Assembly (NCBI RefSeq): GCF_009931435.1
Contig: NZ_CP043414.1
Origin: Escherichia coli
Lineage (GTDB): Bacteria; Pseudomonadota; Gammaproteobacteria; Enterobacterales; Enterobacteriaceae
Reading direction: 5' to 3' (one strand)
Length of the DNA: 64,000 bases
The position numbers are program-made. This document shows, piece after piece, positions 15,001 through 21,000 of this stretch (positions are counted from its first letter, which is position 1; every line of letters starts with the position of its first letter).

Positions 15001-18000
15001 CACAAAGCCCGACGGGAGAACCGAACTGCCGACCAGTTAAGCCAGTACGGGGCCGTGTCGTTACGTGAGCAGGCCCGTTACCTTGATAACAACCACGATC
15101 TGGTTATTGGTGTATTTGACAAGCTGGAAGAACGGGTGGTGGGGAAAAACGGGATTATTGTCGAGCCACATCCGGTATTACGCAATGGGGCCATTGCCCG
15201 TGACCTAGCTGCGGAGATTCGCACCCGATGGAGTGAATGGTCTGTCAGCCCGGAAGTCACCGGGCAGTTTACCCGTCCGATGCTGGAACGTCTGATGCTG
15301 CGTACCTGGCTGCGCGATGGTGAGGTGTTTGCCCAGATGGTTTCCGGGCGCATAAACAGCCTGACGCCTTCTGCCGGTGTTCATTTCTGGCTGGAGGCGC
15401 TCGAGCCAGACTTTATTCCCATGACCAGTGATGAGAGCAACAGGCTGAATCAGGGCGTGTTTGTTGATGACTGGGGGCGTCCCGAAAAATATCTGGTGTA
15501 TAAAAGTCGTCCTGTATCCGGACGGCAGATGGAAACCAAAGAAGTGGATGCAGAGCGAATGCTGCATCTTAAATTTGTTCGCCGTCTGCACCAGATGCGC
15601 GGGACGTCTTTGTTGTCCGGTGTGCTGATCCGCCTCAGTGCCCTGAAAGAGTATGAAGATTCTGAGCTGACTGCAGCAAGGATCGCCGCTGCTCTGGGGA
15701 TGTACATCCGGAAAGGCGACGGGCAAAGCTATGAATCGGATGGTAATGGCAGCAAGGAGAATGAACGCGAGCTTACCATTCAGCCAGGCATTATTTACGA
15801 CGATCTGAAACCCGGCGAAGAAATCGGAATGGTGAAGTCGGATCGTCCCAATCCTAACCTTGAAACTTTTCGTAATGGTCAGTTGCGTGCCGTGGCGGCG
15901 GGCAGTCGTCTGAGTTTTTCCAGTACGGCACGCAACTATAACGGCACTTACAGCGCCCAGCGTCAGGAACTGGTTGAGTCTACTGATGGCTACCTGATCC
16001 TGCAGGACTGGTTTATTGGTGCCGTCACCCGCCCGATGTACCGTGCCTGGCTGAAACAGGCTGTGGCATCCGGTGTTATCAGGCTACCCCGCGATCTGGA
16101 CCGATCTTCACTGTATACCGCGGTGTATTCCGGACCGGTGATGCCGTGGATTGACCCTGTTAAGGAGGCTGAGGCCTGGAAAATTCAGATTCGTGGTGGA
16201 GCGGCGACAGAATCAGACTGGGTACGTGCAGGTGGTCGTAATCCGGATGATGTCAAACGTCGGCGCAAGGCCGAAATTGATGAAAACCGCAAGCTGGATC
16301 TGGTATTTGATACCGATCCGGCCAGTGATAAAGGAGGCAGCAGTGCCGCAACGAAACGACAGGAGCCGCAGCACACCGACGACCAGTCCGAAGAATAATT
16401 CCTGGTTCAGGATGCAGGCAGGTCACCAGAGTGACGCGGATATTTATATTTATGACGAGATTGGTTTCTGGGGTGTTACGGCGAAGCAGTTTATCAGTGA
16501 TCTGAATGCACTGGGCGATATCACCCACATTAATCTCCATATTAATTCACCGGGTGGCGATGTCTTTGAAGGCATCGCCATTTTTAATGCACTGAAAACA
16601 CATGGTGCGTCCATTACCGTTTATGTCGACGGTGTGGCGGCGTCAATGGCGTCGGTCATTGCGATGGTGGGAAACCCGGTCATTATGCCGGAAAACTCCT
16701 TCATGATGATTCATAAACCATTTGGATTTACGGGCGGTGATGCGGAGGACATGCGCACCTATGCCGACCTGCTCGATAAAGTTGAGGCGGTTCTGTTACC
16801 CGCTTATGCACAGAAAACCGGGAAAACCACCGATGAAATTGCTGCCATGCTGGCGGATGAGACCTGGATGTCCGGTGCCGAATGTCTGGCACAGGGATTT
16901 GCTGATCAGGTGACACCAGCCGTTAAGGCAATGGCATGTATTCAGTCAAAACGTACAGAGGAATTTAAAAAGATGCCGGAATCCATTCGAAACATGATTA
17001 CTCCGCCACGCAACAGTGCTCCACGCGTACAGGATGATGAACCTGCAGCCTCCCGGACGCCAGTGCAGGCAGCAGCACCCGTGGTGGATGAAAACAGTAT
17101 CCGTGCGCAGGTACTGGCAGAGCAAAAAGCGCGTGTAAACGGTATTAATGATCTGTTTGCCATGTTTGGCGGGCGTTATCAGACGCTGCAGGCCCAGTGT
17201 CTTGCCGATCCTGAATGTTCGCTGGAGCAGGCCCGTGAAAAGCTGTTGAACGAGATGGGGCGCGAGTCCACGCCATCCAATAAAAATACCCCGGCTCATA
17301 TTTATGCCGGTAACGGTAATTTTGTGGGGGACGGGATTCGCCAGGCGCTGATGGCGCGTGCCGGATTTGAAAAAACCGAACGTGATAATGTCTACAACGG
17401 GATGACCCTGCGTGAATATGCCCGTATGTCACTAACTGAACGGGGTATTGGGGTTTCCGGTTATAACCCGATGCAGATGGTCGGTGCGGCGTTCACACAC
17501 AGTACGTCTGACTTCGGTAATATTCTGCTGGATGTTGCGAACAAAGCCATTCTGCAGGGCTGGGAAGATGCCCCTGAAACCTATGAACAGTGGACGCGGA
17601 AAGGTCAGTTGTCTGATTTTAAAATTGCCCATCGTGTGGGTATGGGGGGCTTCAGTGCTCTGCGTCAGGTGCGTGAAGGGGCGGAATATAAATACGTCAC
17701 CACCGGAGATAAACAGGCCACTATTGCACTGGCGACCTATGGCGAGCTGTTCAGTATCACCCGTCAGGCCATTATCAATGATGATCTGAATATGCTGACC
17801 GATGTCCCGATGAAACTGGGCCGTGCGGCGAAATCCACTATTGCCGATCTGGTTTATGCCATTCTGACGTCTAACCCGAAAATCTCCACAGATAATGTAA
17901 GTCTGTTCGATAAAGCGAAACATGCAAACGTACTGGAGAGCGCTGCAATGGACGTGGCATCGCTGGATAAAGCCCGCCAGTTGATGCGCGTTCAGAAAGA

Positions 18001-21000
18001 GGGGGAGCGTCATCTGAATATTCGTCCTGCGTTCGTACTGGTACCGACGGCGATGGAGTCTGTTGCTAACCAGGTCATTCGCTCCTCAAGTGTCAAGGGG
18101 GCTGACATTAACGCCGGTATTATTAACCCGGTGAAAGATTTTGCGACCGTTATTGCAGAGCCTCGTCTTGATGATAACAGCCAGACCACCTTCTACCTGG
18201 CTGCGTCAAAAGGCTCCGATACGATTGAAGTGGCTTATCTCAACGGTGTGGATACGCCATATATTGATCAGATGGAGGGCTTCAGTGTGGATGGCGTGAC
18301 AACGAAAGTGCGTATTGACGCCGGTGTCGCGCCAGTTGATCACCGCGGTCTGGTGAAATGTACGGCGTAAACGTCGCAGACAACAACTCTGATGGCCCGT
18401 AAGGGCTTTTTTTGTACCTGAAATCAGCCCCTGAACGGGGCTGTGCGGAGACAGTTATGGCAAAGAATTTTGTAGAAGAAGGAAAAACGGTGGCGATTGT
18501 TGCCAGTGCAGCCATCAGCAGCGGAGATCTGGTGCAGGTGGGCGATGTTTTTGCGGTGGCGCTGACCGATATTCCACAGGGTGAAACAGGCGACGGCATG
18601 ACCGAAGGTGTGTTTATGCTGCCTAAGCTGAAAACGGATGACATGAAAACGGGTAAGAAGGTTTATCTGAAGTCCGGAAAAGTTCAGCTGACTAACAGCG
18701 GCTCTGATCCGCTGGTCGGGGTTGTCTGGGCAGATGCCGGAACCAGTGCAGAAGAAGTGCCGGTAAAACTCAATGTCTGATCCCTTTTCCCGGCTGGCAG
18801 CGCGTATGGATGCTATCACGGTTAGAAAGATGGGAAAGACAGCCTCGATTAATGATGTCGATATGACTGTGATCCCGGGAGAAACACTGGCAGAGCTGAA
18901 TGCTCTGTCCGGACCTGCGGTCTCTCTGGTGGTGTTTTCTTCGGGATACCGCCCACGGCGCGGGGATCGCGTTGTTTATGACGGACAACAATGGACGGTC
19001 ACACGGCATGAACGCTTTAACGGTAAGCCAATGATCTTTATTGAGTAAAGAGGTGTGGGATGAAGGGGCTTGAGAATGCCATCCGCAATCTGAACAGCCT
19101 TGATACCCGTATGGTGCCACAGGCCAGCGCATGGGCGATAAACCGTGTGGCACAGAAAGCGGTCTCGGTTGCCACCCGGCAGGTTGCCAGGAATACCGTT
19201 GCGGGAGATAACCAGGTGAAAGGGATCCCCCTGAAACTGGTACGTCAGCGTGTCCGGGTGTTTAAAGCCAGTCCGTCAGGAAAAATGACGGCCAGGATCC
19301 GCGTTAACCGGGGCAATCTTCCCGCCATTAAGCTGGGGACAGCCCGGGTCAGACTGGCCCGGCGTGGTGGAAAACTGCAGTACCGTGGCAGTGTGCTGAA
19401 GGTGGGTAAATATCTTTTCCGGGATGCGTTTATTCAGCAACTGGCGAATGGTCGCTGGCATGTGATGCGGCGTATTGATGGCAAAAATCGTTACCCCATT
19501 GATGTGGTGAAAATCCCGCTGTCCGGACCGCTGACACAGGCATTTGAAGATGCCCGCGACCGCATCATTGCTGCGGAAATGCCGAAACAGCTGGGGTATG
19601 CACTGAAACAACAACTGAGGTTATGGCTGACCCGATGAACCGACATACACAAATCCGCCAGGCCGTACTGGCACGCCTTCGGGAACAGTGTGGAGACAGC
19701 GCCACGTTTTTTGACGGGCTTCCGGCATTTATTGATGCGCAGGAACTGCCTGCCGTGGCGGTGTGGCTGAGTGATGCTCAGTACACCGGAAAAATGACGG
19801 ATGAAGATGACTGGCAGGCTGTTCTGCATATTGCTGTCTTCATCCGGGCACAGGCACCGGATTCAGAGCTGGATATGTGGATGGAGAGCACCATTTTCCC
19901 GGCCCTGAATGATGTACCGGCACTTTCCGGACTCATCGACACCCTGATCCCACTCGGTTTTAACTATCAACGTGATAATGAGATGGCCACCTGGGCGATG
20001 GCGGAAATCACGTACCAGATCACGTACACGAATTAAGGAGGTGGTAATGACCACACCAAATCCACTGGCAAAGACGAAAGGTGCGGGAACGACGTTCTGG
20101 ATGTACACCGGCAAGGGCGATGCGTTTGCGAACCCTTTATCGGACACTGACTGGCTGCGTCTTGCGATGGTGAAGGATCTGCAACCTGGCGAAATGACCG
20201 CTGATGCAGAAGATGACACTTATCTCGATGATGAAGATGCAGACTGGAAAACGACAACTCAGGGGCAGAAATCCGTCGGTGATACTTCGGCGACGCTGGC
20301 CTGGCGTCCGGGTGACAGCGGACAGAAAAAACTGGTTCAGTTGTTCGACTCCGGTGAAATCTGCGCGTTTCGTATCAAATATCCCAACGGTACTGTTGAT
20401 GTTTTCCGTGGCTGGCTGAGTTCACTGGGTAAAACCATTGCCTCAAAAGACGTGATGACCCGCACCGTGAAAATCAGCGGTGTGGGGCGTCCGTATCTGG
20501 CAGAGGAGGGCACTGAAACCGTGGGCGTTACCGGGCTGACGGTGGCACCGGCATCCGCCAGTATCAATGTGGGAGCAACCACCACGCTGACCTTTACAGT
20601 ACAACCTGACGGAGCCAGTGACAAAGCGATCAGTGTGCATTCGACAGATCCACAGACAGCCACTGTGACCCTGAACGGACTTGTGGCCACGGTGAAAGGC
20701 GTGAAGCAGGGCAGTGTCAGCATTGTGGGCATGACTTCTGACGGCGATTTTGTGGCAGTGGCTACGGTGGCTGTCAGCGCCGCAGGTTAACAGGATGATA
20801 CTCATCATTTGCCCCGGTTATTCGGGGCTTTTTTGCAGGTGGAGAATATGATGTTTCTGAAACAGGGCACGTTTAATTATGAAAAACAGTCCGTGGTGCT
20901 CAGTGAGCTGTCCGGGCTGCAGAGAATTGAATATCTGGCGTTTGTTCAGCAGCGAACGGCAAAGTTTGATGCCGGGGAGGGAGAACTGTCGGAGGCTGAA

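Follow-up and report, generated by a model that had tools for sequence, protein, structure and literature searches.

A protease-capsid fusion gene in an Escherichia coli prophage and its probable counterpart in a satellite nested in the terminase gene

The 64,000-nucleotide stretch of Escherichia coli DNA analysed here (contig NZ_CP043414.1 of assembly GCF_009931435.1; “the window”) contains, within a prophage, a single gene that joins a ClpP-like protease to a capsid domain of the HK97 fold, and a second gene of the same design upstream of it. Very probably, the prophage gene encodes a fused capsid precursor of five parts, and the upstream copy is the capsid gene of a helper-embedded phage-inducible chromosomal island (HE-PICI), i.e., a satellite that lies in the large terminase gene (terL) of the same prophage. 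This explanation takes the prophage to be a lambdoid one at the E. coli Qin locus, and the fusion to be its functioning capsid gene. An earlier note on this DNA had reported a protease, a linker and an HK97-fold capsid domain in one open reading frame (ORF), and all three are found there by Pfam, the NCBIfam model NF045540 and a predicted structure; the match to the described architecture is far beyond chance.

The fusion gene and its protein family

The reading frame is open on the + strand from 16151 to 18370, and two start codons come into question. The earlier note had placed the start at ATG 16412, which gives a product of 652 residues and upstream of which a Shine-Dalgarno scan detected no ribosome-binding sequence. 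GTG 16343 gives 675 residues, has AAGGAGG 6 nt upstream (duplex -11.6 kcal/mol), and is the RefSeq start in a genome that is 100% identical across 16412-18370. The gene is confirmed, and a correction of its start by 69 nt is probable. The start stays uncertain, because the additional 23 N-terminal residues are gapped in 73% of the homologues: either start is possible, and the architecture is independent of the choice. Residue numbers follow the 675-residue form unless the shorter one is named.

In the 652-residue form, Pfam matches CLP_protease at residues 23-168 (E 4.6e-36) and Phage_capsid_4 at residues 357-649 (E 1.4e-54), along with a weaker match to Mu-like_gpT. The model NF045540 (scaf_prot_MCP1, ClpP-like prohead protease/major capsid protein fusion; cutoff 475 bits) is matched end to end with 986 bits. 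An AlphaFold2 prediction (mean predicted local distance difference test, pLDDT, 89.4) yields the domain boundaries that the earlier note had wanted predicted: the ClpP-like and capsid folds are resolved, and the linker between them is disordered. Confidence is below 50 for residues 1-16 and stays low to about residue 20. The protease domain follows, then two short helices (residues 202-219), the linker, a segment of three helices (250-273, 280-288 and 294-307, all with pLDDT above 90), a loop of lower confidence and the capsid domain (Table 1). In an alignment of 118 sequences, comprising both window copies and 116 full-length homologues, Ser101 and His124 are invariant (118/118), and position 173, a glutamate in the prophage copy, is Glu or Asp in 112; Glu173 presumably corresponds to Asp171 of E. 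coli ClpP. The N-terminal ClpP fold with its catalytic serine and histidine and the C-terminal HK97-fold capsid domain lie in the same unbroken ORF. A sequence search for a close relative with a solved structure returned none, only ClpP and weak matches to Mu GpT-domain capsid proteins.

The surrounding head module runs in the order DUF1441, large terminase, a 70-residue DUF6148 protein, a portal of the lambda family, the fusion, a cement protein and a Gifsy-2-family protein, after which the tail genes begin. Annotation and Pfam reveal no other scaffold or capsid gene between portal and tail genes, an interval that holds only the cement and Gifsy-2-family genes besides the fusion, just as the earlier note had maintained in denying a separate scaffold gene. 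The prophage DUF1441 gene is located between a cos-like site and terL, and from this position its product is presumed to be the small terminase.

The earlier note had called the architecture unusual, a label that goes back to a comparison with lambda and HK97 only. The fusion design is already known: it belongs to a common family with a curated NCBIfam model and thousands of annotated genomes, and it has a precedent in Pseudomonas phage MD8, where gene 5 alone has been described as combining a protease with a scaffold and a capsid protein (Evseev et al., 2021; PMC8508860). The reported fusion itself therefore adds nothing new. Its DNA is present in 2124 of 5426 complete E. coli genomes, with at least 99% identity in 1314 records, and is annotated under the NF045540 name. 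At the protein level, identity is ~99% to the capsid gene product recorded for phages mEp460, cdtI, phi458, Tritos, Ayreon and HannyBb, 76-78% in VT1-Sakai and several Stx2 phages, 74% in mEp213 and mEp043, 72% in Fels-1, 70% in Gifsy-2, and 57% in MD8 and F10 of Pseudomonas. A search of 1.84 billion cluster representatives gives 6864 proteins with E <= 1e-30. The earlier note's own worry, a hidden frameshift or stop that splits protease from capsid protein in relatives, is not borne out: the ORF is uninterrupted in the named phage records, and 117 of the 149 best representatives of clusters at 50% identity are full-length fusions in which a single alignment covers both domains. The exceptions seen are VT1-Sakai, where IS629 is inserted, and PAN70, where the frame is disrupted. 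The ~99% identity in named phage records and the conservation across clusters indicate that the fused form is functional.

Deposited phage genomes label the gene variously as head maturation protease, Nu3, scaffold protein, Clp protease, major capsid protein or terminase protein. Its capsid role is thus often hidden in annotation, and the capsid gene is mislabelled in many phage records. A preprint on the cyclic oligonucleotide-based antiphage signalling system (CBASS) that deals with a protease-scaffold fusion concerns other phages, not this fusion.

A satellite in terL and the second copy

The uninterrupted terL region of E. coli CP062876 splits on the window into two BLAST segments, 1198-2868 and 13562-14900, which overlap by 10 bp. 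The exact block common to both junctions is CTGGATG, within TT(T/C)CTGGATG. Joining 1879-2868 to 13572-14681 gives a TerL of 699 residues, with Pfam matches to GpA_ATPase (residues 40-303) and GpA_nuclease (325-643), and 696 of 700 aligned positions, stop codon included, are identical to the intact TerL of CP062876. The insertion accordingly lies at codon ~329, where the GpA nuclease domain begins. Excision of the satellite would restore terL, and the junction would then read …GCCAGTTTCTGGATGGAAGGGCC… / …CCAGTTTCTGGATGGAAGGGCC…. Satellite genes and late operon are all on the + strand, and the RefSeq annotation of strain SCU-125 has the same arrangement. Of 5426 complete E. coli genomes, 81 (~1.5%) contain the right junction (satellite end plus terL) within a single aligned piece, among them Shiga-toxin strains of serotype O121:H19.

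Strain PI7 has this backbone (92.8% identity over 5.9 kb) free-standing between abgR and smrA, with a different integrase. Pairwise comparison puts the satellite integrase of the window at 21-25% identity to the integrases of the satellite 11capE, of two fis-site PICIs and of the abgR-site PICI of PI7, which are 45-69% identical to one another. The divergence of the integrase, in a backbone 92.8% identical to that of a PICI with one of these integrases, suggests that the integration module was swapped.

The second copy of the fusion announced by the earlier note exists, at 10672-12588. In a tblastn search of the window with the prophage fusion as query, it is 57% identical across 653 residues; it shows the Pfam domains of the prophage protein, and it matches NF045540 end to end, above the cutoff, with 904 bits. 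From its size and position this 638-residue ORF had been considered as a large terminase, a candidate that was rejected on the tblastn and Pfam results. Identity between the copies is 62-75% over the protease domain and mostly 35-70% over the capsid domain, and the satellite copy is without 28 residues of the disordered linker, in two blocks within alignment columns 228-256. The statement that both copies belong to one island has to be given up, since the upstream copy sits in a satellite with its own integrase inside the prophage terL; the pair therefore consists of a helper gene and a satellite gene. It is a useful comparison, as the earlier note had expected in calling it a natural experiment in capsid divergence, but one between a helper-phage gene and a satellite gene rather than between island duplicates, and comparisons of this sort have been noted before for Gram-negative PICIs (PMC10111431). 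Such a polyprotein pair within one composite element would be a ready system for studying co-assembly, competition or replacement of the helper capsid.

The capsid lineage of the satellite type (635-646 residues) is found in E. coli, Shigella, Klebsiella, Pectobacterium, Dickeya, Serratia and Yersinia; its carriers in Klebsiella and Serratia are PICIs at the fis locus. Against the PI7 copy, the ratio of non-synonymous to synonymous substitution rates (dN/dS) is 0.16 overall; by part, it is 0.12 in the protease, 0.28 in the linker-scaffold part and 0.06 in the capsid domain. Pairs that are further apart, and whose synonymous sites are saturated, have 0.07-0.08, and the values against other PICI copies span 0.05-0.16. 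The satellite fusion is under purifying selection, and since the ratios are low in each part, all three parts are maintained in satellites.

A cos-like element of ~80 bp is present once in the prophage and twice in the satellite, where its copies flank the capsid gene. The three sites have the core CACGGGGCGGGAGCG(G/T)CGCGG in common, which resembles lambda cosN and its flanks. The DUF1441 proteins of prophage and satellite are alignable over their C-terminal halves only (48% identity), the N-terminal halves being unalignable, so the satellite protein may retain the contact to the large terminase and recognise a different cos flank. Because it has both a DUF1441 homologue and two cos sites with a core that matches the prophage, the satellite looks built for packaging by the helper large terminase, and would use the helper's portal and tail.

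Table 1. Features of the window referred to in the text (positions in nucleotides; aa, residues of the 675-residue form)
Feature	Position	Strand	Basis or remark
Prophage protease-scaffold-capsid fusion gene	16343..18370	+	ORF; Pfam CLP_protease and Phage_capsid_4; NF045540; Shine-Dalgarno scan; RefSeq start
ClpP-like serine protease domain, aa ~21-195	16403..16927	+	
Disordered Pro/Ala-rich linker, aa 225-245	17015..17077	+	pLDDT <50; gap-rich across family
Three-helix segment, aa 250-307, candidate internal scaffold	17090..17263	+	
Lower-confidence loop, aa 308-326, candidate maturation cleavage region	17264..17320	+	pLDDT 63-74
HK97-fold major capsid domain, Mu gpT-like, aa ~327-675	17321..18367	+	Confident predicted domain
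Satellite (PICI) copy of the fusion, 638 aa	10672..12588	+	tblastn; Pfam; NF045540
Helper-embedded PICI, 10.7 kb	2869..13561	+	Insertion mapped against uninterrupted terL; Pfam; SCU-125 RefSeq annotation
attL core TTTCTGGATG	2859..2868	+	Overlap of BLAST segments and direct comparison
attR core TTCCTGGATG	13562..13571	+	Overlap of BLAST segments and direct comparison
Satellite integrase	3033-4271		
Satellite small helix-turn-helix (HTH) gene	4284-4487		
Satellite Bro-N gene	4546-5124		
Satellite 527-aa ORF with Icd-like end	5212-6795		
Satellite DUF4222 gene	7458-7757		
Satellite RepA-type helicase	7754-9169		
Satellite SSB	9618-10040		
Satellite small ORF	10466-10675		
Satellite DUF1441, presumed small terminase homologue	12837-13322	+	Pfam
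Prophage cos-like site	1118..1200	+	Core CACGGGGCGGGAGCGTCGCGG at 1143-1163; just upstream of prophage DUF1441 gene
Satellite cos-like site 1	10073..10153	+	Downstream flank resembles prophage site
Satellite cos-like site 2	12613..12693	+	Downstream flank diverges; directly upstream of satellite DUF1441 gene
Prophage DUF1441 protein, presumed small terminase	1313..1870	+	Pfam DUF1441
Large terminase N-terminal fragment, GpA ATPase domain	1879..2871	+	Stop codon supplied by satellite
Large terminase C-terminal fragment, GpA nuclease domain	13572..14681	+	
Portal gene, lambda family	14890..16398	+	
Capsid cement (decoration) protein gene	18457..18780	+	Pfam Phage_cement_2
Gifsy-2-family gene	18773-19048		

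Two of the remaining satellite ORFs deserve mention. A frame of 69 codons overlaps the start of the satellite fusion by 4 nt (ATGA) and is kept in the fis-site PICIs of Klebsiella and Serratia (32-34% identity, 19 invariant positions); it has no Pfam match, and its N-terminal pattern looks like that of a ribbon-helix-helix protein. The 527-residue ORF lies in the variable Bro zone, related satellites having other sequence in its place; apart from its C-terminal Icd-like domain (residues 478-521), it has no further match in Pfam or PADLOC. A PADLOC scan of the satellite accessory ORFs revealed no convincing defence genes, and no P4-like immunity RNA, of the sort some PICIs are reported to have, reached the gathering threshold in an Rfam scan. 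Near the right end of the prophage, inside a tail fibre assembly gene, the Rfam family IS009 matches at 34499-34697 with 221 bits (gathering score 117).

Proposed assembly and alternative readings

In the prophage precursor as proposed, a flexible Pro/Ala-rich linker connects the ClpP-like protease to a scaffold-like segment of three helices, which a short loop joins to the HK97-fold capsid domain. By extrapolation from HK97, lambda, P2 and Mu, the capsid domains would form the shell on the portal, and the N-terminal parts would face inward (Evseev et al., 2021; PMC8508860), so that each subunit would bring its own protease and scaffold, i.e., one protease copy per subunit. The helical segment 250-307 is a candidate scaffold and may act like the delta domain of HK97, by analogy with HK97, lambda and MD8 (PMC8508860). 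Once the shell has closed, the tethered protease would become active and digest the linker, the scaffold and itself, leaving a mature capsid protein of ~350 residues with its N-terminus near residues 308-326; the shell would then expand and bind the cement protein. A capsid protein of the Mu gpT type, aligned via the weak sequence match, would begin near residue 303, and for this reason the loop 308-326 is our best guess for the maturation cleavage region.

Several points weigh against this reading of the two genes. The literature searched, mostly non-subscription journals, yielded no virion proteomics or N-terminal sequencing of the fusion family, and the proposed cleavage sites, the N-terminus of the mature protein and the ratio of one protease per subunit are all carried over from HK97, lambda and Mu. 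Indeed, neither that N-terminus nor the stoichiometry seems ever to have been measured in this widespread family, for which mEp460-type phages with deposited genomes would be suitable. For the satellite copy, earlier work found a PICI capsid gene dispensable for transfer (according to Tommasini, Mageeney and Williams, 2023; PMC10111431). Moreover, in-frame ATG codons occur at the matching aligned position in both copies (16973 in the prophage, 11254 in the satellite), each preceded at a distance of 10-11 nt by GAGGA or AGGAG, even where the two copies encode different residues. Translation could accordingly begin internally, behind the protease domain, and supply most capsid subunits in the manner of Nu3 within lambda gene C, with the full-length fusion as a minor product; lambda, P2 and Mu all have established scaffold genes of the nested type (cited in PMC8508860). 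However, the internal Shine-Dalgarno pairings are weak (-6.0 and -7.4 kcal/mol) with long spacing, and most of the 118 family members have Ala, Val, Pro, Ile or Thr in place of the internal methionine, which makes an internal origin of the capsid subunits improbable.

Two further alternatives would change the reading of the genes themselves, and both receive hardly any weight. The two fusions might be paralogues of one prophage, its capsid module having been duplicated and diverging in place: both are on the + strand, ~4 kb apart in one phage-derived region, with the full architecture in common. Yet the upstream copy lies in an att-bounded 10.7-kb block with integrase and replication genes of its own, whose removal restores terL and which is free-standing at another chromosomal site in PI7; the satellite capsid lineage is found in PICIs of other genera, and a prophage with an identical capsid gene is without the block altogether. 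Insertion mapping has thus already refuted a duplication in place. Of still lower probability is the idea that the prophage is defective and its long ORF artefactual or a decaying fusion of once-separate genes, from which no single functional protein is made. Some relatives do have separate genes, e.g., two MD8-related phages (named in PMC8508860), and many records call the fusion gene only “head maturation protease” or “Nu3”. This is already contradicted by a fused ORF that named phages keep at ~99% identity and that recurs in at least 117 clusters at 50% identity, by invariant catalytic residues, by a curated model of the fusion, and by a head module with no other capsid gene. A fused capsid precursor in the prophage, with its counterpart in an embedded satellite, is what we retain.

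Comparison with known satellites and capsid systems

HE-PICIs are satellites that reside in prophage late genes, oriented with them, and are organised in zones for integration, Bro, replication and late functions; they often carry a capsid gene, as is frequent in Gram-negative PICIs, and their excision restores the interrupted late gene (Tommasini et al., 2023; PMC10111431). The satellite of the window lies in a late gene with a short att block from which excision could restore it, has the orientation of the interrupted gene, and follows the order of the four zones, with integrase and HTH gene, then Bro-N and the Icd-like ORF, then DUF4222, helicase and SSB, and finally the capsid fusion and DUF1441. 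Several gene families and sequence stretches are common to it and 11capE, the prototype of the HE-PICIs. Its integrase is distant from those of the 11capE clade (21-25% identity, as above) and looks like a different lineage; the satellite would thus be helper-embedded by arrangement and outside the published integrase clade, as far as pairwise comparisons go. Its replication protein is a RepA-type helicase instead of a primase. Its target, codon ~329 of a GpA-type terL, likewise differs from the gene-A sites that the published survey places in Terminase_1-type terminases, at positions 132 and 245/246 (PMC10111431).

None of the att-site alignment files of that study includes the terL site, and its supplements, of which one table is incomplete so that absence is unproven, do not contain “GpA” and contain CTGGATG only incidentally (PMC10111431); a further literature search for a GpA-type terL insertion site returned no report. 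We therefore regard it as possible, though on balance doubtful, that the satellite represents an unreported type of HE-PICI, with a site at the ATPase/nuclease junction of a GpA-type terL and an integrase outside the clade reported to target late genes. Even then, it would extend a class already described rather than found a separate one. If so, embedding in helper late genes would have arisen at least twice, and the satellite would withhold the large terminase of its helper until excision. It would also be intermediate between classical and capsid-forming PICIs (cf-PICIs), having its own polyprotein, a small-terminase homologue and a private cos flank. A cf-PICI has a full head and packaging module of its own, consisting of small and large terminase, portal, protease, capsid and connectors. 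The satellite has only the capsid fusion and DUF1441 from this list, and neither large terminase nor portal.

The fusion gene itself belongs to the known targets: one of the 14 published HE-PICI sites, C:CLP_protease:110, has the identity block ATGATGATCCAT (PMC10111431), which corresponds to the codons for Met-Met-Ile-His, including the catalytic histidine of this type of fusion gene. The satellite copy matches it exactly (10984-10995), and the prophage copy has one mismatch (16703-16714). A third level of nesting is conceivable, because both blocks are unoccupied in the window. With regard to packaging, the closest parallel is EcCICFT073, an E. coli PICI with two cos sites and divergent cosB (Fillol-Salom et al., 2019; PMC6739421). 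Both satellites have two cos sites, a cosN resembling that of the helper and at least one divergent cosB side; in the EcCICFT073 model the protein Rpp redirects the helper small terminase (PMC6739421), whereas the satellite of the window has a DUF1441 homologue beside its second cos site.

Among capsid systems, gp4/gp5 of HK97 and C/Nu3/E of lambda follow the same logic, in that a scaffold joined to or nested with protease or capsid protein is removed by the prohead protease (Evseev et al., 2021; PMC8508860). Unlike in the prophage fusion, protease and capsid protein are encoded by separate genes in HK97 and lambda. The proteases are of other kinds as well: HK97 gp4 has a fold like that of herpesvirus proteases and lambda gpC is an S49 peptidase, neither being ClpP-like. 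An S49 peptidase is also annotated in the lambda-like helper of 11capE. Much closer is gp5 of MD8, with 57% identity over the whole length, the same three-part reading and a Mu gpT-like capsid domain; it differs in its Pseudomonas host and its length of 693 residues, and its description is likewise purely computational (PMC8508860). The members of NF045540 have the domain order of the prophage protein and a similar length, and nothing substantial sets them apart from it except, depending on the start codon, a possible N-terminal extension of 23 residues in the prophage copy.

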